Assembly (NCBI RefSeq): GCF_964204645.1
Contig: NC_134029.1
Location: forward strand, 10,690,850-10,754,849
DNA length: 64,000 nucleotides
DNA from: Tubulanus polymorphus
Taxonomy: Eukaryota > Animalia > Nemertea
Direction of reading: 5' to 3'
A model generated the notes under the pieces. It did not search any database. It saw nothing but the letters and a program-made list of their open reading frames with translations, and was not told the origin of the DNA. Below, piece after piece: positions 6,242-60,572 of the stretch. Both the position numbers and the translations under genes were made by a program. The number at the start of each line of letters is the position of its first letter. Position 1 is the stretch's first letter.

Positions 6242-6370
6242 ACTAACACTTTTAATGTTTAAAAATCTAACTCATACAAATATGAATATTGAAATAATGT
6301 TGTAAATATATACTTTTATATTGAATAATCTGTCAATTTAAATGTTATTCATGTATATGATTATTTTAAG

Positions 6371-22825: not shown

Positions 22826-25716
22826 AAAATCTTCCTAAAGTCGTTTGTTACAAGCGCTGTGATTGATACGACCGGATTCTGGTCGGCTAGTAACGATGAA
22901 GCGGAATACCGGGATTCGGGGTAGCGTGCACTGGCAAGTGACTACAAAAATCTACTTCCGTTTCCGTTAAAATTCATAATGTCAAGTCTAAAGTCTCAAC
23001 TCTCGGAATTTCCTCGATCAAGAGGGAATACAGGTAGCTCTCTCTCTCTTTCCATAATCCTATACATTCAAGGAAAAAGTTGCATATAGGCGTCGCTTCT
23101 AGGGTTCGCTCACGTCACTAGCATCTGGGAGGTAGAGAAGCTAGAAGGGGAAAATTCTCTTGTTTTCCTCCATGAGATTTAACGTGCAAAAATATGTCAA
23201 GTCTTCCTCTGGTGAGTGAGAATACTTTAAGGAGTCCTAATTCTCAGTGATAAGTCATAATGGTAACACGGGTGACTGAATGTCCTCACAAATCACCCAT
23301 GAAAAAGCGTGTGCATGAATGAAAAACTGTGAGCAAAAGAATTAATAGAAGAATCATGAATGAGTCAAATGAAATAAAAATCCCCTAGCTTTCTCTCCGA
23401 CTGAGGAGGAAATACAGGACTGCGTCCAGCGCTACAAGTATTTCCGGCCTCCATAGCTGACCTGATCAGGCGTTTAGCTTCAAAAAGAATAATAGATACC
23501 AACTAAATAAAACGAGGAGCATTCACCAATATTTGGCCTCTCCCACTAGAGGGTGCCCTCAATGCTTCCCCTTTTTGAAGACTTACATGATGCCCAAAAC
23601 TCTCCAACCCACAAGATTCTTCAAGAATATTTTATGGTGTCACAGAATCCCAAAAATGCACAAGAAAATCCTTTCCTCAAATGATAGTAAATCCGACACC
23701 ACAAATATAGTTTAGGGAAAAAGGCAAAGATTTAGAATTTTATGTATATGATAATATTCTCTTGAATACTATTTATTATTTCTTGGAAATATTCGAACAA
23801 TGAACAATATATACACAACCTCGAGGTTATCTCTTATTTACAACATTTTAGGTAGATAAGATGGCCAACCGGCCACCAAAGGAGGAGATTAACAAAGGCA
23901 TATTGCCCTTAATACAAGTGCACGACTCGCACCAGAATTCAATAGTATCACGAATAAAGATTTCAGACATTCTAACATTACGACTCAATAATAGTTGCTT
24001 AAACCCTGCACTCCTTTTACGCTAAAGAAAATGTAACTCTGAGTGCTCTTAATAAAGATAAGAATTTTCGCTATATTTGATCATAGTTCCAGTTAAGCAT
24101 TTATTTAATTATTTTTCCTATTATGTTTATGTAAGAGATGGTCACTATTCCGAAAACTCAAAAGTTGAGGGAAAAACCAAGAGAGGAAATCGGAAAGAAG
24201 AATACTTTCGGGGAATAATTCAAAGGAGAAAGCCTCTTTGAACCCTGAAAGATTGTTTTCTGAAAACATCTTTGAGAATAAGGACCAAGAAATATGTAAA
24301 GAGAATCAGTGCTAAGTATGACTTACTAAGAAAATTAGATTAATCCCTCCCCCATAGTTCAAAATCTTAGTAATACACACCTTAAGAATGTGCACCGAGA
24401 CTAATTAATAAAGAACATTTTTGCCTTTTATAGAGCCCAGATTATGACATAACCCCATCTAATTGGCTAAAACAAAGCACCCCGAGCACACAATATAATT
24501 AAGAACCGTATAGTGGCGCCATCTCGGGCACAGAGCACAGCATAAAAACATCGATTAAGGCACATTAACTTGAAAAATACAAACCGGGAGTGACCCGAAC
24601 ACATAGAAAAGGTCTTTAGGTACAGTTTTTGAATTCAAATTAAATCATAGAATATTTCATTAAGATAGAAATAAAAATAGTTTCTAATCCACCAGACCGA
24701 AGTCCAAAGCATTAAACATTCTTGTCTCAGAATTACAAATACGTTATAAGGTTTTATTTTACATCATACAAACTTTTAATATGAATTTAATAGGAATTTA
24801 ATATGAATTTTAGACTGAACTGTGGAGGACTCTGCAGCTGGAAAATAAAAAGAACAGAACGAAGTGAAACGAATTTCCGCTACAACGACTCCAACGACTC
24901 GTGAGGTCAAGGGGTTCGGCGAACAGCTTTAGCGTAGTGGGTTCGAATCCCTTGACGGGTGAAGATGGACAGATACCTCCATCCCTTGTTATTAGCGACC
25001 TTGCAGAAGATACCTTTCCAATCCCCTTACTCCAGCGCCGGCGATAACCGCGGCTCCTTTGTCCCGAAATTGTTCCCGGTGGAAAATAGTACCGCCGCCG
25101 TATTTTTCTCGCTTTTTACACACGGAATAATTATCGAAAGCTATCATGTACGATACCGTTTGAAAGAGGATTATAAAGTCTTGACTCGGTAAAAGTATCT
25201 ACGAATTTCATCGTTTTTCAGCGACACGAGCTGTAGTTTATTAGTTGAGCCGATTTCGCCGGTTTGTTTACTTCCGGTACGAGCCCATGGCCCGCTCGAC
25301 TAGCGGGAGAGTTTAAGTTTCTGCACCGACGTCTTACTGCTATCATTATAAGTTATCACCCTAATTTCTAGTCACAAAGTTAACGTCCTTATATAATCCT
25401 CAATATTACAAATCCAGTAGATGATTTCGGCACCTTCATATCCTAAAAATACCGAGAATTCGACGAATGAATCGACGGCCCTGAACGCGGTCACGCATGA
25501 CGACCGCCTTTCGAGACCTTATTAATCTTTACGAATGGACGATCCTGCACACATTTCGGCAGCGGACTCGGAAGAATGCGAAAAAGCACATCTACCGCGA
25601 CGGCCATTGTTGAGCGACCAGCGAAGCGACGCGGAGTGATGCAACTATGGTGGCTTATAAGGGCCATAGCAGTAATAGGGGTAATGGGCTATAAACTATA
25701 ATATATTTTCATAACC

Positions 25717-25968
25717 GTGTGTAATTATTTTCATATTGATCATGTGTTGCCTATTTCTAAATTTGACATGAATGATGAATATGATAAAAAGTTAATTTGG
25801 AATTGGAAGAATTTAAGACCTTTAGAAAAGAAGGAAAATAAAATAAAATTTAATAAACTAGATTTACAGTTATATTTGGATCAATTAGATAAAGCAAAGA
25901 AATTCATTGAATTATGGAACAATGATCCAAATAATGAACAATATGTTGAATCTTTATTGAGTGGTTGA
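25717..25968 (+). pseudogene. HNH endonuclease C-terminal fragment
   Basis: HIDHVLP...WKNLRPL...EN..K pattern; starts directly at the partially deleted left TIR with no ATG. Confidence 0.65.
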
Positions 25969-26196
25969 AGAATAATAGAATTTAAATAAAATATAATAAA
26001 AATTACATACCTTCAACTATCTATTATTTCTATTTTGATTTTTAATATTTTCTTTTCAAAAAAGAATACTTTATATCACAAATAAAAAATACTAAAAAAA
26101 CAATACAAACTAATACTAAAATCCTTTAGCTTTAACTAGCTAGTATCATTTGAAGAATACTTATAATATTTTTCTTATTAAATTTCTCTAATATAA

Positions 26197-26805
26197 ATGT
26201 CAAAGAAATCTAATAAGAATAGTATTGATATTGAAAAAACATTAGATGATTTGGGTATAAGTGATAATAAGGATCCAGTTGTTTCTAATTCTATTCAAGT
26301 TAATTGTAATATAGATTATGAATACTATTTATATTGTAAGCATCATCTTGAATTATTAATTGCTGGCGGGAAATCTAAGGATTTCTTGGGAAAAATTTTA
26401 ACTTTTCAAGAACTAGACTCTATGAAACCCGATAAAGTAATAAAATATTTTAAGATTTATGAAGAGGCAAGATTGGCTAGAATAAATGATTCTATTTCAG
26501 ATAGTATTATAAAATGTTATTCAAAATTATGTAACCGGTTAATGACAATTGATGATGAAAATAAATTATATAGTGATTTGAAAAATTACTATTTAGTTAT
26601 GACTGAATTACAAAAATGGGTTGGTTATGCTTCATTTCAATTAGGATCGGTTATGACATTAATTTCTACTGGTGTCATAACATTTTCGAACATCAAGCCT
26701 ATGGAATATAAATCAGGTAAGAATGAAACAGATGTCGCTGTACTACAACCAAACGTCGAAACAGAAAATGAATCAGAACAAAAATTAACTAAAATAAATG
26801 AGTGA
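26197..26805 (+). CDS. Polinton hypothetical protein (202 aa)
   Basis: Intact ORF with TAAATG start; homolog at 49451-49858. Confidence 0.75.
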   Translation: MSKKSNKNSIDIEKTLDDLGISDNKDPVVSNSIQVNCNIDYEYYLYCKHHLELLIAGGKSKDFLGKILTFQELDSMKPDKVIKYFKIYEEARLARINDSISDSIIKCYSKLCNRLMTIDDENKLYSDLKNYYLVMTELQKWVGYASFQLGSVMTLISTGVITFSNIKPMEYKSGKNETDVAVLQPNVETENESEQKLTKINE

Positions 26806-27174
26806 TGGAGTTAAGAAAAAGGCTAGATCCGAGAAACAAATTAAATGGGCAAGAGAATTAGGTAAAAGATCTTCAGAATTAAAAAAAGCTAAGAAAAAGA
26901 AATTAACTGATATAAATGAATCACAGATATTGATTCAAATAATAATCCATCTAATTCTTCTAATGCTGGAAGTAATTATAAATTATATATTACAATTATA
27001 AATATATATTACAATTGGATTAGTAACAGTTATTATATTATCCGGTGTAATATATAAATCAAAATTCAAATCTGATGATAAATATGATTCCAATGACAAT
27101 AAACCTATCATACCAGAAATAAGTCAAATCATAAAACCATTGAAACTTAACCAAGATTATTATTAATGGATTAA
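26798..27174 (+). pseudogene. Small basic protein with a predicted TM segment, frameshifted
   Basis: K/R-rich N-terminus; hydrophobic ITIGLVTVIILSGVIY in another frame near 27010. Confidence 0.5.
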
Positions 27175-27180
27175 AATAAG

Positions 27181-28294
27181 ATGAAAAAAGAACAATATTT
27201 AAGAGATTTATATTATAACCCAGAGAGTGAAGTATCATATTCTAACGTTTCAGAATTATGGAATAAAATTAAATCTGATAATGAAAATGGTAATGGTGCC
27301 GTATGGCACCCACATGGTGATATAAAATATAGCGAATTAAAATCATGGTTACAAAATCAACCAACATATCAAATCCACAAGAAAATGGATAAAACTTATT
27401 TAACAAGAAACGTTATGGTTTCATATATCGATCAACAATGGCAAGCTGATTTAATTGACATGAAGAACTTAGAAGAATACAACAAAGGATATTTCTGGAT
27501 ACTGAATGTTATAGACATATTCAGTAGATACGCATGGTCAATTCCAATCAAAAATAAAGATGATATAGAAGTTACAAATGCTTTTAAATCTATATTTAAA
27601 GAAGCTATTCCAGATAAGATTTGATGAAGGTAAGGAGTTTTATAACAAACATTTTAAAAAACTATTATCTGATAACGATGTAGATTATTTTTCAACACAC
27701 TCAGATAAAAAAGCATCTATTATAGAAAGGTTTAATAATACATTGAAAACTAGAATGTGGAAATATTTTACTGCTAATGAAACATATAAATATATCGATG
27801 TATTAGATGATTTAGTGAAAGGTTATACTAATTCTAAACATAGTTCTATAAATATGAAACCTATACAAGCTAGAAAAGAAGATAATTCGGAAATAGTTTG
27901 GAATAATTTATATGGAGCGTTTGTTACACATGATTTCGGTGAACCTAAATTTAAAATAGGACAACACGTAAGAACATCTAAATATAGAAAAACATTTTAT
28001 AAAGGTTATACCCCTAATTTTACAGAAGAAATATTTAAGATTAAAAAGATAATATTAACTAAACCATTTGTTTATAAATTAGAAGATCTAAAAGATGAAG
28101 AAATATTAGGTTATTTCTATGAACAAGAATTATCACTTGTACCAAATCCAGATGAAATAGAATACAAAATAGAAAAAGTATTGAAAACAAAAACTCTTAA
28201 AGGAAAAAAGTATCCTTTAGTGAAATATAAAGGATATGATGATAAATTCAATGAATGGATTTTATCTAGTAAAATAAAAAGAATAAATGAATAA
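27181..28294 (+). pseudogene. int: Retroviral-type (rve) integrase with C-terminal chromodomain; one frameshift near 27620
   Basis: WQADLIDM, VIDIFSRYAW, FDEGKEF, IERFNNTLK; chromo YKIEKVL...VKYKGY...NEWI. Confidence 0.93.
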
Positions 28295-28903
28295 AGATTT
28301 ATTTATATTTGAACCGCATAATATGTTAGTTACTGGAGTAACCGATTGTGGTAAAACACATTTCATATTAGATTTGTTAGAAACTATTTATAAGAATCAT
28401 TTTGATAATATAATATTATTTTGTCCTACTTATGAAATGAATAAAACATATAATAGAGACATAGTTAAGATAAAAAAGTAAAGTTTATTATATTAAATCC
28501 TAAAACAGTAAAAGAAAATTTAGATAATTGTATAAAAATAGCAATTGATACTTATAAAGGATCAAATACATTATTCATTATAGATGATTGCGCAAATTTA
28601 CATGATTCAAAAGTGAGAGAAAGTGAGTTATGTTATCTAGCTTTCTCTGGGAGACATTTCGGGATAACAACATGGGTTTTAAATCAAAAATATAATTCAA
28701 TTGTTAAAGACTTTAGGGAGAATATAAGATTTCTAGTTTTATTTTATATCAAAGATAAAAAATCTATGCAACAATCATTGGAAGAAAATCAAATTATACC
28801 TATTGAATTACATGATGAATATATGAATAAATTAAAGAATAATAAAGGTTCAAAATTATTACTGAGATTACAATTTCCCTATGAATATAAATTTATAAAA
28901 TAA
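28287..28903 (+). pseudogene. A32/FtsK-like genome packaging ATPase; frameshift near 28475
   Basis: Walker A GVTDCGKT, Walker B LFIIDD, SGRH...LNQKY...REN. Confidence 0.9.
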
Positions 28904-29090
28904 CTATTTATAATTTGGAATATTATAGATACTAATTTATATTTCTATGTACTAGACGTACGAGTAAGAAAGTAAGATTCTTACCTTTTTACTTTCTTGG
29001 CAAGAATCTTGGATTCTTACGTACGTCTAGTCCATAGAAATATGAATTATTAAATGAAATATATAATAATGAATAAATTATATATTAAAA

Positions 29091-29212
29091 CTATGTTTAT
29101 AATTTATGTTTATGATTTATGTTTATAATTTATGTCTATAATTTATGTTTATAATTTATGTTTATAATTTATGTTTATAATTTATGTTTATAATTTATGT
29201 TTATAATTTATA
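29091..29212. repeat. 13-bp tandem repeat (TTTATGTTTATAA) x~9 between convergent genes
   Basis: Read directly from the sequence. Confidence 0.9.
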
Positions 29213-29311
29213 TTTCTTGGCAAGGATTCTTGGATTCTTACTTTCTTACTCATACGTCTAGTGCATAGATATATAAATATTTTTATAGATATATAAATAG
29301 TTTTATAATAA

Positions 29312-30451
29312 TTATTCTAATTTTGTTTCTAATACATTTATAAAATCATCTTTGTTTATATCAAATTCATCAGAAGTCTTTTGCATATTTATTAATTCTA
29401 TTTCATCCTTCATTCTACGTTCATCATCACTTAATCCAGCTTTTATTCTTAATTTTTCAAAGTAATCATTAGAATTATCACCATCAAAATCAAATTCAAA
29501 ATCATTTATTAAATTAAATAAATCTAGGTATCCATTATACGCTAATTTATATATTTGGTCAGGATTATCTTCTGCATAAGCTAATAATTTATCAAATAAC
29601 AACTTAAAGAATATATAATATTGTTTAGTTTCAGGATTAAAATATTTGATATATTTCTTTGGTTCATCTAACAATGGTAACATACCCACTTTTTTATAAA
29701 CATTAATTAGATGTAATTTTGATTTATAATGAGTAATTTTATCAACAGGTTCAATTTCTTTATCACAATAATCACATATTAATTCTTTTTCATTTTCTAT
29801 GTGCCCCTTAGATTTTTTATGTTTAGAAAAATTACTTTTAGAAATATCTAAATTACAAATGTTATAATGTTTTTTAGAATCATCAATTATTTCATTATCT
29901 GTTATATCATTATCATTAGTTTCGATTGGGTTAACATTATTTATTACATTATCTGTTATATTATCTATGGTATCATTAGTTTCAATTGGGTTAACATTAT
30001 CTTTTATATTATTACTAACTGATATATTATTATCATTATTATTCTTTTCTTTTTCTACATGTTTCTTTGATTTCTTATGTGATGGCCAATTTTTATATGA
30101 TATATATTTCTTACATACATCACAATATTTTGGATTATAATAATCTTTTTTTGATTCAATATCATATGTAGAGGGTATATTATAAGATGTAGATGCTGTT
30201 ACATCTTCTATTTTAGTTTCCATATTATCACTTTCTTCTATTTTATATTCAATATCATTCTTATCTTCTATTTTAGTTTCAATATTATTTTCTATTTTAG
30301 TTTCAATATTATCTTTTATTTTACTTATTCTATATTTGAATTGATTAAAGTAATCTCCAAAATACTTAATGTATTCATCATAAGGTAATATATAATATAT
30401 ATCTGATATCATTTCACTTGGGGTTTGTATTTCATATATTCCACCTTCCAT
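29312..30451 (-). CDS. Accessory protein with 2-3 matrin/C2H2-like zinc fingers and low-complexity repeats
   Basis: CDVC...H....KKH, (Y)NIC...H....KGH, CDYC...H....KLH; IETKIE and NVNPIETND repeats. Confidence 0.75.
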   Translation of the reverse strand: MEGGIYEIQTPSEMISDIYYILPYDEYIKYFGDYFNQFKYRISKIKDNIETKIENNIETKIEDKNDIEYKIEESDNMETKIEDVTASTSYNIPSTYDIESKKDYYNPKYCDVCKKYISYKNWPSHKKSKKHVEKEKNNNDNNISVSNNIKDNVNPIETNDTIDNITDNVINNVNPIETNDNDITDNEIIDDSKKHYNICNLDISKSNFSKHKKSKGHIENEKELICDYCDKEIEPVDKITHYKSKLHLINVYKKVGMLPLLDEPKKYIKYFNPETKQYYIFFKLLFDKLLAYAEDNPDQIYKLAYNGYLDLFNLINDFEFDFDGDNSNDYFEKLRIKAGLSDDERRMKDEIELINMQKTSDEFDINKDDFINVLETKLE

Positions 30452-30483
30452 TTATTATATAAATATTTATTAAAGTTAAAATT

Positions 30484-31731
30484 TTAATACATAACACTAT
30501 CTAATTGTGAATTTACAATATTTAATTGCGCGTCAGATATAATATAAATGTGCACTTTGAAATTTAGACTTCCTTTTTTCTTTGTCATGAAAAATTGTAT
30601 TCCATCTTTAGTGTTTTGTAATTTTTTTCCAGAACCATGTAATGAATTATCCTCTGTTGTTCTAAAATCTAACCATAATGCATATTTATTACCGGTATAA
30701 TAATCAATTTGATTAATTTTACAATTTTCAGATGATTTTACTTTTTCATTCATAAAATGTTTTCTAATTTCTGGCCATTGATCTATCATTCTCATTCCTT
30801 GACAAAATATTTTATTTGCTATTCCTTCGATAGTTATTTCTACTTCTGTTATTTCAGGATTATAATACTTATCAACCTGTATTGCACCATTAGAATATGT
30901 TGCAATGGTAAAAAATATTAATATACCTTTAATAGATCTTCTTGGGAAGTTAATATTCTCATTAATAATTTCATCATTTGCATTAATAGTTACAGTTTTA
31001 AATTTATCAATATAATCATATAATAATGAAAATCCTTGATTGTATTGAGTTTGAATTATACTTGAAATATTTTCATTAGTTACTGTGTCATATTCTAAAC
31101 ATATATTCGATAATTTATAACTCGTATCTTTATTAACGCTAGATATTACAATTTCATTAACAGGAGCAAATGTTATTTCGAATATAACGTCTTCTTGAAT
31201 TGCGTATTTATATAAAGGTGCATTGTTATTTATCAATTCAAAGTCTAATGGAATTTTATATTTGCTTCCATAAATCCTTTTTATCAAATTATCTACAGCA
31301 TTAGTTAATATTGCGCTATTAGCCCCTGATCTTAATTTATTTTGGTTTTCTGATTGGATGCCTTGAAATATCATATTATTTCTGTTTTCATTAGTTAACC
31401 ATAAATCTTTATAATGCATAAATAAATTATAATCATCTAATGAGAAAACTGTTTCTGGACCAATCTTTATTGTTAACTTTTTAATCAAATATCTCCCAAC
31501 ATTATCAACAACATAATTATTATCATGACCAATTACTTTTATATCGGCTGATAAATAAATACTATTTGGAACGTAAAAAGTATTTTGTGTTAATCGAGGA
31601 ATTCTAACATATAAAGTTTCATCGGGATTAATATTAGAAGGATTATGAGTAATTATATGATGTGATCTCTCTGCTTTAATAGCATTAGATATTCTATGAT
31701 TCTTAGAAGGATTGATATAACTCCCACTCAT
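30484..31731 (-). CDS. Major capsid protein (double jelly-roll, hexon-like)
   Basis: Intact 415-aa beta-rich ORF, the expected size and position in a Polinton, strongly conserved with copy 3; fold inferred. Confidence 0.75.
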   Translation of the reverse strand: MSGSYINPSKNHRISNAIKAERSHHIITHNPSNINPDETLYVRIPRLTQNTFYVPNSIYLSADIKVIGHDNNYVVDNVGRYLIKKLTIKIGPETVFSLDDYNLFMHYKDLWLTNENRNNMIFQGIQSENQNKLRSGANSAILTNAVDNLIKRIYGSKYKIPLDFELINNNAPLYKYAIQEDVIFEITFAPVNEIVISSVNKDTSYKLSNICLEYDTVTNENISSIIQTQYNQGFSLLYDYIDKFKTVTINANDEIINENINFPRRSIKGILIFFTIATYSNGAIQVDKYYNPEITEVEITIEGIANKIFCQGMRMIDQWPEIRKHFMNEKVKSSENCKINQIDYYTGNKYALWLDFRTTEDNSLHGSGKKLQNTKDGIQFFMTKKKGSLNFKVHIYIISDAQLNIVNSQLDSVMY

Positions 31732-31771
31732 TTATTTATCAAAAAAATTAATTATTTATTTTTTATCATGT

Positions 31772-33445
31772 TTACTTGATATTTTTTGATATCATGTTTA
31801 CTAACCCAAAAATAATAGCACTTACAACTGTAATTAAAAATAAAATAATATGTTCAGCAGCAAAGTTAATAATGTTTCCTGCAGATTTCAATATAAAACC
31901 AACAATTGATGCAATAACTCCTGGCAATGCTGCAGCAGATTTTTTAGATAGTTCCCATAAATATTTTGCTAATTTCTTTAAACCATCTTTAACTTTATCT
32001 TGTATAGAATTATTATCTGGAGGTTTATCCGGTTTATTGGGAGTAGGAGTAGGAGTAGATTTCAAAGCATTTGATATTGCTAAACCTATTGTTGTGAATA
32101 CCATAGTTACAGATGTTAGAATGGAAAGAATTGTTATTCCTTCTAATTTAAATAATAATCTTATTCTATCTTTTAGTGATATTTTAGAATTTGGTTTAAT
32201 CAACAAATCTTTAAAAATAACTTTTAATTTTTTAATATGATTAAGATCATATGATTTTAATAATATATCTCTTTCTTTTTCCTGTAATTCTTTGTTATAT
32301 TTTAAATCATCTATTTCTTTTACTAAAGCTAACTTTCTGCTTTCATAATCAGGTTCATAAATGACATTAAGATCTCTATTTTATTCTAATTGTTCTAATT
32401 TTTCATTTGCAATAGCTAATTCTTTTTCTAACATGGTTATTTTAGAAAATCTCATATTAATATTAGCATTTACATCAGCTGATTCTTGAATACCTTTAAT
32501 TTCTCTACGTGTTTGTTCAGGAAATGCTTCTAATTCTTCATCAGTTAATTTAAGAAATCCTTTTTCTAGTAAAGATAGTGTTCGATTTATTCCAGCACTA
32601 TTCATCTCTTCTTCTGAATCTCTTAATCTATCAATTTGTTTTTCTAATACTAATTGTAGTTGACTTGAATCATTATCAATTTGTTGAATATCTCTTCTCG
32701 ATGTTTCGGGTGTTGAAGATCTTAATTTATCTAATCGATTTACAAAATCTTCATCAGTAGGATTTGGATTTGGATTTTTAAATGGTGAATATTTGTTTAT
32801 ATCAATATTATGAATTGGTTCTTCTTCATTTATTCTATCGAGTGCATTCCATATAATTCTGAGAAATTCTCTACCACCTTTTGAACCTTCAATTGTAGAT
32901 AATGCTCGCATTTCAGGTTCCAAAATATTTTCTTGACCCATTCTAGATAATTGAATTGATACAATATTCCTATTTAAATCAAGATTATAATACCATGAAT
33001 CATTTTTAAATTCTAAATTATTCATGAAAAATGGGTCATCTTTTAAAATTTGTTCTACAACACCTTCTGTATCAATTTCATGTATTACAACTTTTGGTAA
33101 TAATTCGTTAACAATTGTATCTGTTACTCTAGATTTCATTTTATATAATTCCATAGGTTTATCAGGATATTTTTCTTGTTGTTCTACTAATAGTTTCATA
33201 AATTCTTTTCTTTCTCTTCTAGTTGAAATTCTACCAATTTCAGGAGCTTTTAAATATTTATTTAATTTTTCACGTAATTCGGAATCATCATCATCATCAT
33301 CATCATCATAATCATCATCTTCATCTAAATTAGTATTATATTCTATTTCATTATCATCATTAAAACTTGTTTCACTAAAATCAGGTTGTTGTTCATCACT
33401 TATACCAGGTTCATCTAAAGGATCCAATGGAATTTCTTCATCCAT
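31772..33445 (-). pseudogene. Acidic/coiled-coil protein with C-terminal hydrophobic and amphipathic helices (putative membrane-active virion protein); frame broken near 32200-32380
   Basis: ORFs 32381-33445 and 31772-32206 are colinear with one region of copy 3 (53360-54785); C-terminal GITILSILT...AAALPGVIASIVGFIL conserved. Confidence 0.65.
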
Positions 33446-33461
33446 TTATATAATAAAAAAA

Positions 33462-34787
33462 TTAAAATTTAAAATATAATATTCCTCCGATTACAATTCC
33501 TATACAAGTTAAAGCTAATTTAGCATTTTCATGGGATTTATTATCATCATTTAGTTTAATTATATCATGTTGAATATTATCAGTTTTTATATTTTCTGAT
33601 GTATTGTAATCTTTTATTTTAGAATCATTATTTAATTTAATATTCTTAGTTTTAGTTTCTGTTGATTGAATATGTTTTTTATTTTTTTCACCTTCCATTA
33701 ATTTTGGAGCAGTAATAATCTTTTTATTTATATCATTCAATCCAAATGAATTATTTATTGTTGCAGTTTTAATTAGATTATTATAACCAATTATGTTTTC
33801 CTTCTTTAATACTAAATCATTTGAAATAATAAATAGATTAGGGCCTATACAATAATTTAATCTAATATGTGATTTATCTAAATAATTTTGATATCTTACA
33901 ATGTTTTCCGGAATCGATCTATTTTTATCATTATGAATTGAATCTTCAAATAATACTTTGAATTGTTTCTGCGCATCGAATGAAGTGTTATCATTTCCAA
34001 TTATTGGGGATCTTGTTTCAACTTGCGCACCTAGAATACATATCAAATAAGTTCTAATAGATTGATTTATTCTTTGTATTCCAGCTTTAGTAAAACCTTC
34101 ACTATTTTCTAAAATGAAATTAACCCAACCATTATTGTTTTGTTGTTGTATATTATTATAATATTTTGGTAATTCATTCCAATTTAGTGTTCTTATATCT
34201 GAATTTGTCATTATTTTTCCAAATTCTTTAGTATATAATATTCCTAATCCACCCATTGTTCCAATTTTTACCCTAAAATCTTTATTTGAATTAATATTAA
34301 ATTCATTACATATTTTATAAAACTTAGAAAAATTAATATTATTATTCAATTCTTTAAAATATTTTGAACCTGGTAAAGGACATTCTAATTCATCTAATAT
34401 TAATTTTATTTGAAAATATGTATGAAATCTAAAAAGTGATAACATCAGTGGCAAACTTGGTTTGTTTAAATGATCATTCCAACTAATTCCGCATCCTGTT
34501 GTTGCGCAATAAACAGCAAAATTTAATTGGTTCTGCCAATACTTCATATTAGATTTTAATAACCATTGTTTTGCCTCATTTAAATTTTTGAAATAAATTG
34601 TATACACATGAAATATATTTTCCATCTTTACATGAAAATTATTACTTTCAGTAACATAAATATATAAATCAATTAATGAATTTAAAACTTCATTTCTATA
34701 TGTAATATCTTTTTTAAAATCTATTCTAGGAATATTATATTTAATTGATTTATTATATTGGAAAGTATTTGGAAAACTACCTGCCAT
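33462..34787 (-). CDS. Conserved Polinton protein of unknown function with C-terminal TM anchor (441 aa)
   Basis: Intact ORF; WQNQLNFAVYCATTGCG motif shared with copy 3; ends LALTCIGIVIGGILYFKF. Confidence 0.8.
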   Translation of the reverse strand: MAGSFPNTFQYNKSIKYNIPRIDFKKDITYRNEVLNSLIDLYIYVTESNNFHVKMENIFHVYTIYFKNLNEAKQWLLKSNMKYWQNQLNFAVYCATTGCGISWNDHLNKPSLPLMLSLFRFHTYFQIKLILDELECPLPGSKYFKELNNNINFSKFYKICNEFNINSNKDFRVKIGTMGGLGILYTKEFGKIMTNSDIRTLNWNELPKYYNNIQQQNNNGWVNFILENSEGFTKAGIQRINQSIRTYLICILGAQVETRSPIIGNDNTSFDAQKQFKVLFEDSIHNDKNRSIPENIVRYQNYLDKSHIRLNYCIGPNLFIISNDLVLKKENIIGYNNLIKTATINNSFGLNDINKKIITAPKLMEGEKNKKHIQSTETKTKNIKLNNDSKIKDYNTSENIKTDNIQHDIIKLNDDNKSHENAKLALTCIGIVIGGILYFKF

Positions 34788-34803
34788 TTATATAATTAAA
34801 AAA

Positions 34804-35238
34804 TTAATAATTTATTAATTCTTTTAATAATTTATCTTGTTCTTCAACTGTTATATGACCAGTTAAACTTATTATATAATCTAGTGTATTCTTTAATTTA
34901 TTAATTTCGTTTATATTAGTTTTAATTTTTTCTTTATTACTTTTTATATTTAATTTTGAACTTATACCGGTTAAAACACTTGAACTTAATCCTAATACAC
35001 CAATTGATATAGCTAAAGGTGTTAATGGACTGAATATTGCTAGAAATGTTATTACAGAATTAATTGTAACCGAACCACTTATAATCAAATAATATATAAT
35101 TTTAGATTTTAAATATTTTTTCTCTTTAACTTTTAAGTCACTTTCAAATTCTAATATTTGTTTTTCTAAATATGTTTTTAATTTAGTTTTATTTATATCA
35201 TGAGGAATAATATCAATATTATCAACTTTATCTTCCAT
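34804..35238 (-). CDS. Two-TM protein flanked by coiled coils (144 aa)
   Basis: Two adjacent hydrophobic helices; homolog at 56168-56604. Confidence 0.78.
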   Translation of the reverse strand: MEDKVDNIDIIPHDINKTKLKTYLEKQILEFESDLKVKEKKYLKSKIIYYLIISGSVTINSVITFLAIFSPLTPLAISIGVLGLSSSVLTGISSKLNIKSNKEKIKTNINEINKLKNTLDYIISLTGHITVEEQDKLLKELINY

Positions 35239-35258
35239 TCATTTAGCAAAAAAAATTA

Positions 35259-35681
35259 CTAATTAGTAAACTTATAAGCAACAAATATAACAATAACTGT
35301 TCCGCCTAAAATCCATATTATTTCATATTTCTGTTGTTCATTACTTGGGGTATAATAATCTGATAATTTAGGTTTGTATAGATGTAATTTTTCTTTATTG
35401 GTTACCGCGTTATATAAACTCATTGCATCATCAACTGATTGAAAATCTCTATGTGAAATCTTCTGATCATATAATTCCTTGTTAATATAATCCATATAGT
35501 TTTGCCTCTTTTCTCTATATTCTTCTGCTGCTTTATTGTATTTTTCTAATGCTAAGTTATGTCTTTTTTGTTCTGATAATGAACCATTTTCATCAAGATG
35601 CTTAAATAAATAACCACCACCAGTAAATGCTAAAGCGTTAACAATTGCCGATCCTATAATAGTTCTAACTGCAGAAGCCAT
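35259..35681 (-). CDS. Polinton small membrane protein (140 aa)
   Basis: Near-identical to 57-479. Confidence 0.8.
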   Translation of the reverse strand: MASAVRTIIGSAIVNALAFTGGGYLFKHLDENGSLSEQKRHNLALEKYNKAAEEYREKRQNYMDYINKELYDQKISHRDFQSVDDAMSLYNAVTNKEKLHLYKPKLSDYYTPSNEQQKYEIIWILGGTVIVIFVAYKFTN

Positions 35682-35705
35682 TTATTTAGTAAAATAATTA
35701 TGCAT

Positions 35706-35926
35706 TTATATGGGAGAAATATATTTTTGTTTTTCCAAATAATCAATAGTTAAATTAGATAAAGTAACTGCTAACGTTAATTTTAAAATATCATTTATAT
35801 CAAATCTATCAACATTAACACTTCCCATTTTGAATACTTTTTTAATACCATTGAATAACCAACAGTTCCAACTGATAGTAATGCGCCATTATATAATCCA
35901 GTTATTATCCACTTATTATCACTCAT
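35706..35926 (-). pseudogene. 73-aa hydrophobic protein with a 1-bp homopolymer deletion
   Basis: 221 bp versus 222 bp in copies 1 and 3. Confidence 0.75.
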
Positions 35927-36283
35927 TTATTTATCAAAAAAATTACTATCTTCAAAATATTTAGTTATCTTATTTATGATTAATTCAACATTTATTTCAT
36001 TACTAGTTTCATTTGTATATATTTCAATTATTATTTTTTTAATATCATCGATGATAAAATCTTCATCTAATTCATAAAATCTTAAAAATTCTCTAATTAA
36101 ATTAGTAATCTTTTCTACATTTAACGTTTCTTTATCTATTGCTGTTTCATACTCAAATGTTGTTTCATTAGAAAATGCAATATTTTTAATATGTGTAATT
36201 ACATCATTAATGTTAAATTTCATTTCTTTCTCATGTTTAAAATCAAACCCAAAACATATACTCGGTCCAACAGTTATATTCAT
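35927..36283 (-). CDS. Polinton hypothetical protein (118 aa)
   Basis: Intact ORF; its TAA overlaps the next gene's TAAATG; homologs in copies 1 and 3. Confidence 0.72.
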   Translation of the reverse strand: MNITVGPSICFGFDFKHEKEMKFNINDVITHIKNIAFSNETTFEYETAIDKETLNVEKITNLIREFLRFYELDEDFIIDDIKKIIIEIYTNETSNEINVELIINKITKYFEDSNFFDK

Positions 36284-36299
36284 TTATATAATGAAAAAA

Positions 36300-37055
36300 T
36301 TACTCTCTACATCTTATTACTAATTCATAAATTACAGGAAAGTTATTCAAATCAATTAAATGTCCATTATGATTTCTTATTTCTAATTTAAAATTATTAA
36401 ATTTAGGAATGCAAGGTTTAAAATCACATTCAGTTCAATTATAATTTATTTGAGTTCCAAATTGTTTAACATTTTTCAGCGGTAAAATATTTAGTATACT
36501 AGAATTACAAATTGTTTCTTTAGTTGCTTCGAATGTTTTTGTAGGATCGATTAAATTGCAATAAATATAAAAGTGTGTAAAAGGTATTATATTTGAATTA
36601 CCATCTATGTTTCCTGTAACAGTATCTGGTGCAATTCCTAGCAATTTAGCTAATGGTTTTTTTACCATAAATGCATGTTGACTTTCATCATATACCTTTA
36701 TTTCAATTTTATTTGTGCTATCACTTTTTATAAATCTAATTAAAAATTTATCATCTCTTCTAATTTCCAACCGTGCTCTTCGATTAATTTCTTGAGCTAA
36801 TGTTTCTAAATTATATAATCCTGGTTTTAAAATTATATGAAACCATTTATCTATATTTCCAATATGAATTAAAAAAGTATTATCTTCAATAGTTTTATCC
36901 GATATATTATAAAAAGAATTACATAAACTTATATTAACTAATTTTAAATCAACACAATTCTTGAATTCTCTATCTAATTGTACTAGTAAATTATGAGATT
37001 TATAATTTGTAAGTTTTCTAGAATCAACAAATATTCTGTATTCTTTTAATTCCAC
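36300..37055 (-). pseudogene. Minor capsid (penton-like) gene; start region altered, frameshift near 36435
   Basis: Homologous to 1103-1858. Confidence 0.7.
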
Positions 37056-37072
37056 GATTTATTTTACATATT

Positions 37073-37426
37073 TTATTCGAAATCTATTTCATGGTGCCCT
37101 TTTTCATTCTTACCTTTGTATACGAAATAGAAATCTCCAGAACATAATTCTTCTAGATCTTCACTTGATAATCTATGAAATCTATCTGGTAAATATGTTC
37201 TGAATTTATATGTATTTCCTTTTAATCCTTCATATTCTAAGTGTATAACTAATTTATCTCCATAGTTATTAGTAACTGTATCAATATTTGTAATTAGATA
37301 TTTCTTATGGATTGTTAATTCTGTTAACTTTTTGAATTTATAATCTACAGATTTTACATTTGTGATATCTTTTATTCTATCTAGAAATAATTTGTTGTTC
37401 TCACTGTGTGTTTGTTTACTCTCCAT
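37073..37426 (-). CDS. 117-aa protein downstream of polB (possibly OB-fold/ssDNA-binding; unverified)
   Basis: Intact ORF with TAAATG start; same sequence is fused to PolB in copy 1. Confidence 0.65.
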   Translation of the reverse strand: MESKQTHSENNKLFLDRIKDITNVKSVDYKFKKLTELTIHKKYLITNIDTVTNNYGDKLVIHLEYEGLKGNTYKFRTYLPDRFHRLSSEDLEELCSGDFYFVYKGKNEKGHHEIDFE

Positions 37427-37454
37427 TTATAATACATATTTTATTAAAATTTGA

Positions 37455-40400
37455 TTAACACGTTAGAATTCTTTTCATTATCTCGTTCTCTTTTGTTTCT
37501 TCTCTTTTAAATTTTAAGTATCCATCTAAATTACAACCATAAGCAACTGTATGAATTCCATCATCTAAAATATATCTTTTATCATCAAATGGGTTTAGAC
37601 TTATCTTTTCAATTTCTTCAATAAACATTTCATGATCTTCAGATCTTAAACATCTCATTTTATGTTTTCTAACTTCTTCATTGAATATACAATTGATGTA
37701 ATCTTTGAAATGAATATTCTTTTCTACTACACTTTTGGTTATTCCTTTTAACTTTTTAGCTTCATGAGTTTTAGTTTTATATGAATACATTTTAGATCTA
37801 ATACCTATGAACTCTATCATTTCTTCACCACCTAATTCATCTTTGAATTTACCGGGAACTTTTTTATTATCATTGCTAAACAATTCATGATCTTTAGGAT
37901 AGTTACTAAAATCAAAATGATGTTTTAATGTTTTTAAATCATCTGTTATGTTATCAGTTTTTATCTTTAATATGTAAGAATCTGTATTTTTTATGATAAA
38001 TGGAAATCCACAATTAAATGTACCATCTTCAGTTGTTAAATCATAAACATATTCTGTAGGATTGGATATTTCAAATAAATCTCTAGCTTCAGTTAGTTCA
38101 TTTTCTACATGCGTTAATTGAAATACATTTGGTTTATCCTTTCTAATATTAACTAACATATTAAATCCTAATGAATTGCATAATATATTTAATCCTGATA
38201 CAGCAACTTTTCCTTTTTGTGTCAAAGATATAGTTTTCTGTTTTGTATAGTTTTTTGAACCATCTGCAGCATAAAACCCAATGAAGAACCATTTTCTTAA
38301 ATCATATTTTGCATTTATTACATAATCTGGAACTATCTTTTCTTTTGTTGAAGTATTACTTTTCACTATTGCATGAATATAGAATTCATCATTATATTTA
38401 ATTGCAAAATCTTTAGTAGTATTCACATGTATTCTATAACATGGTGATGATTTCATATAATCCCCGATTCTAAATGTTTTATGTGAATAAACTTGTTCAC
38501 AGTATTTTTTAATTCTTTCTAATAATTTCAAATCTTGATTGCATAAATACCAACAATATTTAGTTCCACTAACATATTTATACACACCTGCTGAACCATC
38601 GCCCATAGAAAAATCCTTTGATAAAATATTCTTTTTCTTCCAATGTTTCGGGTTCTATATTATAAATATTATCAATTATTTTATCAAATGACATATGATT
38701 CATTCTTGGGTAAAATCTTCTATGTAATAATTTATCTCCAATTTTTATATCAGTTGGTTTTATTTCATCACCATTTTGTTTAATTAAACTATGATCTTCA
38801 GTAACATCAACAAATCCTAATTTAGTTCTAACTCTATAGATTTTCTTATTCGTTTTATGTCTAATTATATTCTTTAATTTCACCCATCCATTTTTTGTCG
38901 AAACATCCATTAATCCATTTATTTGTATTAATTCTTTTTCACCATACGAAATATAAAGTTCATTTTGTTTTGGAATTATTTCTGAAATTCTTCTAATTAA
39001 CATTTGATTATTATATTTTAAAAATATTGGGGTGTCAGCTGTAACAGAATCAAAATATAATATTTCTATATGTTTTTCTCCAAAAAGTGGTTGTAATACA
39101 TTATAATAGAATTCATACATTAGTAATTTTGATAATTCTAAAACTGAAGCGCCAACAGATTGGTTTATTAAATTTCATTGATGTTCTTCTCATTTTAACT
39201 GCAGCTAAATTTTCATCAAATATTCTGTTACCTATAAATTTAGGATATGTTTGTAAATGTCTAATTCTTTTACCATTACTAACTAACTCAATATCATTTC
39301 TATTTCTAATATTTTCACAAGTCTTACCATAGAATGCATTATTCATTAACTTGAAGAAATCTTTTTCGAAATCAGTTTTAGCTTCAGTTCTCTGTTTGGT
39401 GTTAAAATCTATATATTTTTCTAACCACTTAGATTGACTAAATGAAATATATCTATGTACTTTTTTTAGAATCATTCCTTGATTCAAATAAAACGTCAAC
39501 ATTCTATAATGTACCACATAATCATATTTATCTTCTTGAGTTACCATTAACTTTTCTGTATGAATATGATTTTCAGGTTTAATTCTTTTTTGATAACTTG
39601 ATAATTCTTCATGAGTTACGGTTTTATGTTCGGGGCAGTATGCTAGATTTCTAGATTTAAATTTAATATGTTCAGGATATTCCAAGTCTACAACAAAGAA
39701 GTAACCAGTATCTGAATCATCTGCAATATCTAGAATTCTTTTCTTCCAATCAAATTTGTCATTATTTTCATTCTGTAAAACTTCACTTAATTCAAATACT
39801 CCATAAGGTTGTGGTTCCATCATTGCCCAACCATACAAATTATTTGCATCTATATATAATAACTTATATCCGGGGTTATCATTTACATTGAAATATCTAT
39901 CACCTAATACACCTGAAACTCCTCCTCTTATAGATTTTTCAAATAATAATAATTGATCTATATTTGTTAACAAATCCATTTTTATATCTGTAAATTTTAA
40001 ACCACAATCCCAAGTTAAACCTGGACTAGAATAACAATGACAAGGATCAATATTAAAATATTTTAGGATTACATCTCTAAACCTTTCGAATATATTGGTT
40101 AATAATAATACATCTGATTTTAAATATATATCTACTAATTGCTTATGATTTATTATATTGAAATGATTCCAAATATTCAATGTTCTATTATATACTTCAT
40201 CTTTAACATATTCATTTTTTAATTCATCATAGAATTGTTCTTTCAATAATTCAGTTATGTTAAAATCATTATGTGATTTATAAAATGAATATGGAATTGC
40301 TCCTTTATATCTCATTAATTGAAAATCATCATTATTTGGATAGTGTTGTTTTAATATTTTTAATTCATCATCAACTAATGATTTTGATAAGTTATCTAAT

Positions 40401-42306
40401 GAACTATTTAAAAATCTATATGAATCTATAAATCTTAGACACCCAAATTGGAATGATATATAATTCTCAGATGTTTTAGCTAACATTCTAAATTTATAAG
40501 TTGGTATTTTATCTTTTGATCTATTTGAATTTAATCTTTCTGTTTCATTATTAATTTCTTCTATTTTATGGCATAACTGTTTGATGAATAAATGTGCATC
40601 ATATCCTGATAGATTATGAAATATAACTGGTACAAAATTAATTTTCTTAGCTTGTAAGTTACAATTCTCATGTGCAGCGCCTCTAAACTTTCCGTTCAAA
40701 TGATCATGGTCTCTTACTTTTTTATCTTTATAATTAAATATCTTTTCACAATAATAACATTTATCTGCAAACGCAAATGCTTCTTTATCTTCTTCTGTCA
40801 TTATAATTTCTATATTTTTATTTAACTTTTCATTAAATTTTATTTCATATTCAATTAATGTCACAAAAATGATTGATAACATTTTCATTTCTGTAATGAT
40901 AATATTCACTTTTAATTAGTTCTGGATAATCAGATTTAATATATAACCCGAAAGCTGCAGCTGATTGATGAATCTTTTTAATAGTATTTGTTTTTGGTGG
41001 TTCATCTGAAAAATCATTTTCATTAGAATTTAATTTCTTTCTTTTATAATATATTTCTTTTCTATCTTGATCAGTTAATTCTTTATTTAATGATTCAAAA
41101 TCTCCATATCTTACAAATGGTACTTTATTTTTGTAATCATATTTTTTGAATTCTAATATTTTATCTTTTTCATTTGGTAAAACTAATTTACAATAATCAT
41201 GATTTTCACATAATTGTTTATGATTTAATAATGTACTTTCATTACTGAATCTATGTAAACATTTTCTACAAAGATATATTTTATGGTGATCATTTTCTGA
41301 TTTAAAAAATAAATCTATTTGTGATTTGTGATCTATGTGTAATATCTTCTGTTGGATGTAAACAACTTATTATAGCCCATAGAAAACATTTATCATCTTC
41401 ATTTTGTACATTTATTACAGTATTAGTTTTAAATGGTAGTTTAATATAACTCGATGCTTCAATATCTGGTTCTTTATAATATGATACATTATTTTCATCA
41501 ATTGGTTTTGATTTAGTTAACTTATTATATTTTGTGTTATAAACATGTAAAGTCATAAATATTATTTCATCAAATATTAAACCAGATCCTTCAAAATATT
41601 TCACTTCAATTTTAGTTTTTACTTCATTATAACATTTATCTAATTTTTCATCTATATGTTGTTTAGATATAATATGTTGTGAATGGGAATTTATATTATA
41701 TATTGGTTTATCTTCAGATTTTATAAACTTTACTTTAACTGATATACTAATTTTAGGATATTCAACATCAGTAATTATTTTTATAATATTTTTCATATTT
41801 TCTAAATGTTTTTTATTTTCTTCTAATGTTTTTCCTTTATGAAATTTAAACTCGATAGCTGCTGGACCAATATCACTTTTAAATGCTTCGGTTATCTCTA
41901 TATCTTTTTTGTTATCCAATGAATTAATATATTTTCTTACATCTTCCATGTATGGTCTTTTATTGTTTAATTTATTTTTTATGCTTTTAATTGTCTTCTG
42001 TTTCTTATCATTATCTTTATCAAAATAATCTTCACCTAAAATATTATTATTCTTATTTCTAATATAACTTTTATATTTTAAATGTTCTTTATAATATCTT
42101 TTATCACTGAATGATTGATTACATGTATCACATTTGTATGTTTCTTTTTCATTCTTTAATTCATCTAATTTAGTTTCTAATATATCATCTTCATATTCTA
42201 GTTTCAATTTATTCTCTAAATGTGTTTTAGTTTTATTGTGTCTTGCTTTTTGGGATTTATCTATATTGATATTACATGTTGGGCAGTAGTACTTATTTGC
42301 TTCCAT
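37455..42306 (-). pseudogene. polB: Protein-primed DNA polymerase B with intein; several frameshifts and an internal deletion near 41320
   Basis: YIDANNLYG, KLMNNAFYGK, YFD-[intein]-TDS, RSKMYSY, KLKGI, DDKR. Confidence 0.95.
37986..39048 (-). mobile_element. Intein with LAGLIDADG homing endonuclease in PolB motif C (354 codons plus a 1-bp insertion near 38608)
   Basis: Block A SVTADTPI; block B VTEDHSL; FIKGFFMGDGS and FFIGFYAADGS; block F VYDLTT; terminal KN followed by +1 Thr; absent from copy 1. Confidence 0.95.
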
Positions 42307-42512
42307 TTTAATATCAAATTTTTTGTTAAAATTGATTTTAGAAGTTCAATGATTTATATCATGTATTATTTCAATCACACTTTACTAACACTTTTAATGT
42401 TTAAAAATCTAACTCATACAAATATGAATATTGAAATAATGTTGTAAATATATACTTTTATATTGAATAATCTGTCAATTTAAATGTTATTCATTTACAT
42501 GAATATTTTAAG

Positions 42513-42921
42513 AGTGATAGGGGTAATGGGCTTTCATATCAAAGGTTGAATGGTCGAGTTCATTAAAAACAAATATTAAAAGTAATTTAAAACTATAATA
42601 TATTTTCATAACCGTGTGTATTTCAGTTGAATAATAGAATAATTATTATTATTAAAATATATTTGATTATATGAATTTGTGTATTGTAAATAAATCAATT
42701 GGTCGCGGAGCGGAGCGGTAGCGAAGTGGAGCGACCAACTGATTTAATACAATATGCTTTTAAAATTTGAATTATTAATATCTTAGAATAAATATTTAGT
42801 TATAATATAAAATACACACGGTTATGAAAATATATTATAGTTTTAAATTACATTTAATATTTGTTTTTAATGAGCTCGACCTTTCGACCTTTGGTATGAA
42901 AGCCCATTACCCCATATTACT
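42513..42921. repeat. 409-bp terminal hairpin of Polinton copy 2
   Basis: ~110-bp arms 42513-42622 / 42810-42921; nested stem AAATCAATTGGTCGC...GCGACCAACTGATTT near 42692-42745. Confidence 0.93.
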
Positions 42922-43146
42922 CATAGCGTAAAATTCCTGGGGCCGGTTTCATAGACATGGAATAAATTTATTCCCTGATATCAAATCACTAATCCCAGGG
43001 ATCAAATTTAGTACTAGGGAAATTTCTGTTTCATAGACGTGGATGTTTTTATTCCCTAGCAATAAGTAGCTTATTCCTAGCGGCAAATTTGATACCTAGC
43101 CACAGCTAGGTATCAAATTATATTCCTTAGCATCAAAATTAACAAA

Positions 43147-48609: not shown

Positions 48610-49450
48610 AGATGAAAATATGACGAAGACTTTGGGTGTGAATTATGACTTGTGATTACGACCGTTAGACCCTGAATGGGATGAAGAGAAGAAGCTACTC
48701 AAAGTCGGAGGAAGATTGAGAAATTCACTTCTTCCTGAAGAAACAAAGAATCCAATCATTCTGCCGCCTGGTGAAAAATTGGTTGAAAAACTGATCATGT
48801 GGTACCATGTTATATATGGTCATACTGGTACTGTTCAGACATTGGCGGACTTAAGATGTAGATATTGGTTAATTAGAGGAAGACAAGAGGCCATGAGAGT
48901 AATCAATGATTGTAAATGCCGTGAACCTGAAAAGATAGAACAAAAGATGGGACAATTACCAGTTGAAAGTGTCATTGGAGTCCCTGTATTTTACCATGTC
49001 GGAGTAGATTTCACGGGACCATTGTATGTGAAGTCATCCAAAGTGTCTGTATCTAAGGTGTACATTGTTTTGTATACTTGCATGGCAGTTCGTGCTATAC
49101 ACTTAGAGTTGGTGCCAGATCAGACAACAGAAGAATTCCTCAGGAGTTTTGGGCGCATGATGATCCGCAGAGGAAGATGTATTGTGATGTTTTCCGACAA
49201 TGCTAAGACCTTCGAGAAGGCATCAACTTTACTAGCGAATCTATTCTTACCAGGAAATTAGAAGAAATTAGATGTATATCTACACGGCAAAGGTATAACT
49301 TGGAAGTTCATAGAACCACGAGCCCCATGGCAAGGGTGTTTTTATGAGGGACTCATCGGTGTAGTGAAGAGACCATTAAAAAAGATTCTCGGTAAAGCTA
49401 AGCTGTCATATACTGAGTTGGAAACTGTGTTATGTGAAGTTGAAGCACAG
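48610..49450 (+). pseudogene. BEL/Pao LTR retrotransposon pol remnant (integrase); gag/PR/RT deleted, 3' truncated
   Basis: VGGRL...PIILP, HHCC zinc motif, VGVDFTGP, RAIHLELV, SDNA, APWQG.FYE. Confidence 0.9.
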
Positions 49451-49858
49451 TTATTCAGTCATAACTAAATAATCATTTTTTAAATCGGAATATAATCTAT
49501 TTTCATCTTGAATTGGCAGCATATAATTACATAATTTACTATAACCTTTTACTACATTTTCTGATATCGCATCATTAATTCTAGCTATTCTTGCAGTTTC
49601 ATAAATCTTAAATAATTTAATAATTTCATCTGATTTCATTGTATCTAATTCATTATAAGTTAAATTTTTACCAATAAAACTTTTACATTTCCCAGATGCT
49701 ATTAATATTTCTAATTGATGTTTGCAATAAAGATAATATTCATAATTATTGTTGTAGCAATATCATTTAAAGCACCATTATTATCTGACGCTGATTTTGT
49801 GTCTGTTATCAATTGGAACATCACTATTTTTAGATTTTATTTTCTTTTCGCCTCCCAT
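49451..49858 (-). pseudogene. Homolog of the 202-aa protein, 3' truncated
   Basis: KIYETARIARINDAIS...LYSDLKNDYLVMTE. Confidence 0.8.
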
Positions 49859-49888
49859 TTATATAAGAAACAAATAAGTTGTCTTGTT

Positions 49889-50172
49889 GCAACTAGAATT
49901 CAACTAGAATTTAACTAGAATTTTAACTAAAATATACTAGATTAACAAGCTAGTTGAAATATTGTTGTTTTTTTTAATTTTTTATTGAATTTTATTTGAT
50001 TTTTGTTTCAACTACCAATAACTAGAATTCAACTAGAATGTAACTAAAAATATACTAGTTTAACACGCTAGTTAAAATATTGTTGTTTTTATTTATTTTT
50101 TCGTTTCAACTGCCGATAACTAAAATTTAACTTGAACGTGACTAAAATATACTAGATTATCAAGCTAGTTGA
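49889..50172. repeat. Degenerate tandem repeats (AACTAGAATT / ATATACTAG.TTAACA.GCTAGTT) x3
   Basis: Read directly; lies between the ATPase stop and the next start. Confidence 0.75.
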
Positions 50173-50174
50173 GT

Positions 50175-53329: not shown

Positions 53330-53359
53330 TTATTTAACAAAAAAAATAATTATTTATTT

Positions 53360-54785: not shown

Positions 54786-54801
54786 TTATATAATAAAAAC
54801 A

Positions 54802-56151: not shown

Positions 56152-56167
56152 TTATATAATAGATAAA

Positions 56168-56604: not shown

Positions 56605-56623
56605 TTATTTAGAAAAGAAATTA

Positions 56624-57007: not shown

Positions 57008-57030
57008 TTATTTAGCAAAAAATCACGCAT

Positions 57031-57612: not shown

Positions 57613-57629
57613 TTATATAATGAAAAAAT

Positions 57630-60567: not shown

Positions 60568-60572
60568 AAAAA

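Follow-up and report, generated by a model that had tools for sequence, protein, structure and literature searches.

A poxvirus-late-like start signal, TAAATG with a conserved T nine bases upstream, marks most gene starts of a Polinton/Maverick element in the nemertean Tubulanus polymorphus, and this signal is conserved in, and restricted to, one capsid clade of such elements. The window analysed here is the whole 64,000-nucleotide stretch at positions 10,690,850 to 10,754,849 of contig NC_134029.1 (assembly GCF_964204645.1). The element, copy 2 of several in the window, is full-length (25671..42921, 17.25 kb) and has several broken genes. We consider it probable (about 0.65) that T(-9)...TAAATG is a promoter and initiator for the late multisubunit RNA polymerase that a large cytoplasmic DNA virus with late transcription of the poxvirus type would supply, so that the element would be a genome-integrated, virophage-like hyperparasite. 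Placing this helper in the pox lineage itself is tentative, at somewhat less than even odds; otherwise it would belong to another giant-virus lineage sharing the initiator.

TAAATG is found at 11 of the 14 gene starts of copy 2 that still have an ATG (the broken minor-capsid start was excluded), compared to 44 of the 740 other ATGs (binomial p=1e-11). The hexamer is also frequent away from gene starts, so it is the position that carries the signal. The three exceptions are the integrase (TAAGATG), the DNA polymerase B of the protein-primed type (pPolB; TAAAATG) and a SLATT-like open reading frame (ORF), ORF144, for which copy 2 has a one-base variant and copies 1 and 3 have the complete motif. 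A previous sequence-only reading had proposed a T-run, a short spacer and TAAATG at most genes. Every site that it listed is present, with coordinates referring to the A of ATG, and the integrase and pPolB start contexts and the 0-40 bp gaps of the minus-strand module are as it described. Its TAAATG is borne out, but the T-run is not a general feature: at least four T's precede 6 of the 11 motif starts, whereas a single T at -9 (counted from the T of TAAAT) is present at all 11. At two promoters (ORF140 and ORF73) covered by ~900-fold genomic reads, variants at 6% or more surround the motif and spare the hexamer and the -9 T.

The capsid alignment led to 41 metagenome loci. Clade A, which consists of the window and L001-L014 (51-76% identity, 20-44% GC), is one side of a 99-support branch in a quick capsid tree with midpoint root. 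L015-L020 lie in the sister group, L018 and L022-L025 were assigned to the sister set by identity only, and L021 and L026-L043 were excluded because their ORFs are fragmentary. One mechanical start rule was applied to all sets and covered 11 of 14 clade A loci and 8 of 10 sister loci. Under this rule TAAATG stands at 45 of 50 starts in clade A, 42 of them with the -9 T, and at none of 43 in the sister clade. The frequencies are 2/36 in other Polinton-like viruses and virophages, 4/30 in giant-virus contigs, and 149/864 in iridovirus-like contigs (L053-L132, the best 80 of 434), of which those below 30% GC gave 61/244, 29 with the -9 T. A hand-curated count yielded 70/81 for clade A and 0/59 for the sister clade, or 60/68 and 0/44 once near-duplicates were removed, a step that dropped L011, a miss (0/1). 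Because the curated list omits 6 and 5 broken-gene fragments and includes 10 ORFs picked after inspection, we rely on the mechanical rule. The GC-richer clade A loci L006, L007 and L010 (36-44% GC) have the motif at 9 of 11 starts, and AT-rich sister loci (29-31% GC) at 0 of 10. The clade loci are kin, and these counts therefore describe one ancestral trait conserved across ~50% protein divergence rather than independent origins.

Scans of viral contigs gave no capsid relatives, and genome contigs gave two short fragments, which were not used. The only eukaryote-named capsid relative is a bivalve Polinton-type protein outside both clade A and the sister clade; together with the transposons in the flanks, it points to an animal host. 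A capsid relative with 54% identity (cluster P0046) occurs in nine short-contig records named Bartonella sp., which are probably co-assembled host DNA. A contig of the viral collection (L135:1-8745, 38% GC) encodes pPolB, integrase and a distantly related ATPase. All 7 of its 7 genes, among them those of pPolB and integrase, start with TAAATG, and 4 also have the -9 T.

The architecture of the signal was compared with poxvirus late promoters. Among 60 clade A motif starts, T climbs from -12 and peaks at -9, where it is present in 57 of 60; of 113 TAAATG sites away from starts, 37% have it (p=7e-15). Positions -1, -14 and -15 show a preference for A, and T-runs of at least four are found at 36/60 motif starts vs. 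14/113 non-start sites. The vaccinia late consensus has a T-rich core 5-7 bp ahead of TAAAT(G/A) (PMC5294985) and a conserved T ten bases upstream (PMC11980589; T-N9-TAAATG in Table 1 of PMC11423596). Late promoters of vaccinia and mpox thus resemble the Polinton signal in having TAAAT over the start codon, a T-rich core about 5-7 bp upstream and one conserved upstream T (PMC5294985, PMC11980589, PMC11423596, PMC4542343), and TAAATG is annotated in salmon gill poxvirus as well. They differ in that the Polinton T peaks at -9 rather than -10, and here about 90% of genes have the motif; the carrier is a 17-kb integrating element with no detected polymerase, for which the transcription start and poly(A) leader are predictions. 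The vaccinia spacing, with T at -10, fits 46 of the 60 starts. At the starts of ATPase, minor capsid, zinc-finger and ORF130 genes in clade A, the -9 T is present but a T-run never occurs (0/14), whereas capsid and membrane-type genes mostly have a T-run; these two gene sets may represent two temporal classes.

Could the motif simply reflect a 23% GC genome and ORF calling from the first ATG after a stop? Of the element's other ATGs, 6% do follow a TAA, as do 25% of the starts in AT-rich iridovirus-like contigs. However, one rule gave 90% in clade A vs. 0-25% elsewhere, the motif persists at 44% GC and is missing at 29% GC, and the -9 T is invariant. The GC-stratified and mechanical-rule controls refute this compositional explanation. 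A signal for translation of a polycistronic mRNA, in which TAA-ATG links termination with re-initiation or the start is protected by a stop in frame, could draw on the narrow gaps and on one exact stop/start junction, that of ORF118 and ORF73. We regard it as very unlikely, since the TAA terminates the preceding gene at just 1 of 60 motif starts, which rejects stop/start coupling as the explanation. In addition, divergent gene pairs in L001, L008, L009, L012, L013 and L014 have the motif on each strand, 19-30 bp apart; TAG or TGA almost never replaces TAA, even at 40-44% GC, and the fixed -9 T would be left without explanation.

A more substantial competitor, though still an unlikely one, is an autonomous nuclear virus whose own factors, from one of its unassigned ORFs, steer host RNA polymerase II (Pol II), without any helper, to a promoter that derives from late transcription of the giant-virus type. 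Integrated copies are nuclear, and ORF118, ORF117, ORF202 and ORF379 have no assigned function. A VLTF3-like late factor is encoded in the sister clade (L016, L017 and L020; Pfam E=6e-4 and 4e-5; Atlas 0.89, taken as a lead only), which also has a TATA motif of its own close to the ATG; VLTF3-like genes have been reported for some polintons (PMC11131425, PMC8502044). On the other hand, a search of the window and of clade A loci with a three-sequence profile of low sensitivity returned no VLTF3-like gene, and the coding strand of 29312-42306 contains 60 AATAAA sites, a word that is not avoided. The base at -3 is also difficult for Pol II. The Kozak rule calls for a purine there, which is found at 37 of 44 sister-clade starts, whereas 62 of 68 clade A starts have T. 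A Pol II start within TAAAT would leave no leader, and a start further upstream would retain the T. Vaccinia transcripts start in TAAAT and gain a poly(A) leader by slippage (PMC6211774); such slippage would remove the T at -3 from clade A mRNAs too. In the coding strands of clade A the number of AATAAA words matches expectation (206 observed vs. 210 expected), and in the sister clade it is lower than expected (15 vs. 27, small counts), a contrast that is suggestive of transcription outside the host Pol II pathway. The T at -3, the tolerated AATAAA, the divergent starts 19-30 bp apart and the lack of a detected polymerase together fit non-Pol II transcription, as indirect evidence.

Under the helper-polymerase reading, transcription would start on the A-triplet of TAAAT, slippage would add a non-templated poly(A) leader in place of the T at -3, and hairpins between convergent genes would terminate the transcripts. 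The element would provide pPolB, capsid, ATPase and integrase. No RNA polymerase match was found in the complete element between its terminal inverted repeats (TIRs), where the largest unassigned ORF is about 500 aa or less, so the integrated element would stay inactive until the host cell is infected by a helper. An inverted repeat at 28915..29320, between the convergent ATPase and zinc-finger genes (folding z=-9), is a candidate bidirectional terminator, and L001 and L005 have strong hairpins at this junction too (z=-9.1 and -8.4).

Several observations weigh against this reading. No helper virus was found by any of three routes. The intein relatives led to giant-virus loci L044-L047 (GVMAG), with TAAATG at 4/35 starts; the deoxynucleoside kinase of L003 led to L048 as its nearest viral locus (37%), with the motif at 1 of 42 ORFs; and a motif scan of viral contigs gave 4 matches, but in none of these genomes do most starts have the motif. 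One of these matches led to the iridovirus-like contigs, in which a minority of starts have the motif and the capsid promoter is of a different type. Contigs with the intein-bearing Pol-delta-like polymerases described below have TAAATG at 4 of 30 neighbouring starts. The hexamer is not exclusive to poxviruses, being present at a quarter of AT-rich iridovirus-like starts, and the best-conserved T is at -9 instead of the -10 of the orthopoxvirus consensus. The AATAAA contrast is drawn from small counts, and the GC-richer clade A loci have a ratio of 0.77. T5NT, the poxvirus early-gene terminator, is scarce even in capsid genes (2 vs. 14.5 expected), an under-use which a purely late programme does not predict and which is partly general homopolymer avoidance. 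Several small ORFs without assigned function could be transcription factors, and structured expression is seen in RNA-seq for the genes of coral polintoviruses (PMC11131425), whichever clade these may belong to. The conserved, clade-specific pox-late-like cis-element stands, but the identification of a pox or nucleocytoplasmic-large-DNA-virus type of polymerase, as advanced by the sequence-only reading, is tentative in its pox part. T5NT avoidance was tried as proof of a pox early terminator and set aside as weak (0.34 observed/expected vs. 0.72 for other T5 words; p=0.01 uncorrected, 22 patterns). The kinase gene (L003:10340-10981, Pfam dNK E=2e-31) lies under a T-run and TAAATG, and the capsid-gene promoter of the iridovirus-like contigs L053-L132 consists of a T/A-run, TCTTG, about 8 nt and ATAA.

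An intein interrupts pPolB at motif C (37986-39048, minus strand, frameshifted, with a LAGLIDADG-like region). It occupies a YGD|TDS-type site, starts with Ser, ends with Asn before Thr and has a homing-endonuclease region; its Pfam matches are below the curated cut-offs. The site is the same motif-C position as in giant-virus DNA polymerases. The intein is present in copy 2 and in a fragment at 61555-63281 and absent from copy 1, and both alleles occur in the reads (joint 37985-39049). Three pPolB inteins form one group with a support of 99 among giant-virus PolB inteins, with no clear donor. The nearest relatives outside pPolB (about 41%) are in Pol-delta-like giant-virus polymerases, one of them identical to that of a giant-virus metagenome-assembled genome. 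These relationships favour contact or exchange with large DNA viruses but provide no link to poxviruses, since the nearest relatives are in polymerases of non-pox giant viruses.

The signal would behave like the helper-matched promoter of a virophage, while its carrier is a Polinton outside the virophage taxon. Mavirus and EMALE virophages are likewise integrated, low in GC, flanked by TIRs and intronless, with an rve integrase, and mavirus-type elements carry the late motif of CroV (PMC8547959). The present element differs from them in its Polinton-type capsid relative, in TAAATG instead of TCTA, and in that neither a protease nor a helper was found. No Pfam match to the Sputnik major capsid protein, typical of the virophage taxon (Lavidaviridae), and no protease match were obtained in the element, unlike the virophage contig L133 with its capsid match. 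Polinton-like viruses found in entomopoxvirus occlusion bodies have been proposed as poxvirus hyperparasites (PMC11296320); they encode a cysteine protease, and some have no integrase. Yeast pGKL plasmids are pPolB-type linear elements (PMC11161782) with a TAAAN initiator, slippage poly(A) leaders and stem-loops near 3' ends, but they have their own RNA polymerase and capping enzyme, lack a capsid and are extrachromosomal (PMC6211774). Polintons/Mavericks (Polintoviricetes) share with the element pPolB, rve integrase, A32-like ATPase, double-jelly-roll capsid, TIRs and a 6-bp duplication; the element differs in having no detected protease, an intein within pPolB and a clade-wide pox-type initiator, which the papers searched do not describe.

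Helper-matched promoters are known in virophages. We found no report of helper-matched or pox-type promoters in Polintons in the literature searched, which lies outside subscription journals, so an earlier report may exist. The word "promoter" is absent from the main texts of PMC11296320, PMC8502044, PMC11131425, 10.64898/2026.06.19.733378, 10.64898/2026.10.13.758929 and 10.1101/2024.03.23.586382, and "motif" and "TAAAT" are absent from that of PMC11296320. How Polintons are expressed, and why their virions stay unseen, is a long-standing question (10.64898/2026.06.19.733378), and with a promoter of the poxvirus type throughout the clade, dependence on a helper can be put to a direct test. If the proposed dependence holds, an unknown large DNA virus with pox-type transcription is predicted in these hosts, and virophage-like dependence would extend from protists to animal genomes. 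A wider and more doubtful proposal is that the whole integrated Polinton clade consists of endogenous virophages of an undiscovered poxvirus-like lineage and that Polinton promoters are barcodes of their helpers. Clade A would then show the pox late initiator, the sister-clade TATA the late initiator of African swine fever virus (median 9-nt leader, PMC7163114), and L135 would be a second, distant case; upstream motifs could place thousands of integrated Polintons with helper lineages. In the sister loci L015-L025, 34 of 44 starts have a TATA no more than 30 nt away, which in 25 of them is 5-12 nt before the ATG, and this fits the African swine fever virus initiator better than a Pol II TATA box.

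TIRs and a 6-bp target duplication are a Polinton/Maverick feature, and both are present in copy 2 together with pPolB and rve integrase (both broken here), a double-jelly-roll major capsid protein and an A32-like ATPase. The GC content of copy 2 is 23%, that of its flanks 33-46%. The features of the window are as follows.
25665..25670, plus: left 6-bp target-site duplication, hexamer identical to 42922-42927
25671..25730, plus: left terminal inverted repeat, the shorter of the two ends
26197-26805, plus: ORF202, T(-9) and TAAATG at 26185..26199
26786..26800, plus: T(-9) and TAAATG of a broken small ORF, within the final codons of ORF202
27177..28294, plus: integrase with chromodomain, in two pieces, TAAGATG start context and no TAAATG
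28275..28900, plus: A32-like packaging ATPase, broken, T(-9) and TAAATG inside the integrase 3' end
28915..29320, no strand: long inverted repeat and 13-bp tandem array
29312..30463, minus: zinc-finger ORF379, T(-9) and TAAATG (30449-30454)
30484..31747, minus: major capsid protein (30484-31731), T7-N6-TAAATG (motif 31729-31734), from AlphaFold and Foldseek
33443..33461, minus: start of ORF354, T7-N6-TAAATG; the gene is broken and extends to about 31772
34785..34803, minus: start of ORF441 (33462-34787), T6-N7-TAAATG
35679..35694, minus: start of ORF140, T4-N6-TAAATG
35924..35942, minus: start of ORF73, T7-N6-TAAATG, the sole site where TAA is the stop of upstream ORF118
36281..36299, minus: start of ORF118, T6-N7-TAAATG
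36302..37059, minus: probable minor capsid gene, broken including its start, weak DUF5901 match
37073..37438, minus: ORF117, T(-9) and TAAATG (37424-37429)
37455..42310, minus: pPolB, in pieces (DNA_pol_B_2 E=3e-16), start TAAAATG at 42304-42310
42810..42921, minus: right terminal inverted repeat, with an extra inverted copy beginning near 42509
42922..42927, plus: right 6-bp target-site duplication
1..6560, minus: copy 1, right part, TAAATG starts at 37, 479, 725, 1086 and 1858
49450..59424, minus: copy 3, degraded and rearranged; several of the homologous starts have TAAATG

The AlphaFold model of the capsid protein (pLDDT 81) matched iridovirus, PBCV-1 and mavirus capsid proteins in Foldseek, and by this model the protein is of the double-jelly-roll type. 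The rve Pfam match of the integrase is E=1e-4 in the window copy and E=2e-9 in L001, and the ATPase orthologue of L003 matches Pox_A32 with E=5e-11. The copy 1 counterpart of the probable minor capsid gene is an intact ORF (1103-1858) that starts with TAAATG. A maturation cysteine protease, present in most group 1 Polintons, had no match among the ORFs scanned at Pfam sensitivity. The AlphaFold model of ORF441 has a pLDDT of 39, Atlas gave no usable match for ORF118, queried with its L003 orthologue, and the 24 relatives of ORF117 are all unnamed. ORF202 and the integrase both end in I-N-E (26795-26805 and 28284-28294) because the motif of the following gene occupies their last codons.

Every copy within the window has broken genes. 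Genomic reads filed under the same species contain many different right-end flanks, which shows a multi-copy family, and free linear ends left no trace in the DNA reads. At their right ends, copies 1 and 2 (5975-6232, 6371-6560 and 42509-42921) contain nested short units with a terminal repeat on each side, which resemble miniature non-autonomous derivatives; one of them holds a perfect 77-bp palindrome. An HNH-like ORF remnant related to ORF171 of L001 lies just within the left end of copy 2 (25700-25970). At 60171-61488, plus-strand zinc-finger-like ORFs that start with a TAAATG (60171) lie opposite the pPolB end of a fourth fragment; copies 1 and 2 are not arranged in this way. The host flanks (14952-16235, 18896-22104 and 43147-45050) contain a MULE/FLYWCH transposase, pieces of LINE-like endonuclease and a nuclease of the DDE_Tnp_4 (Harbinger) type.

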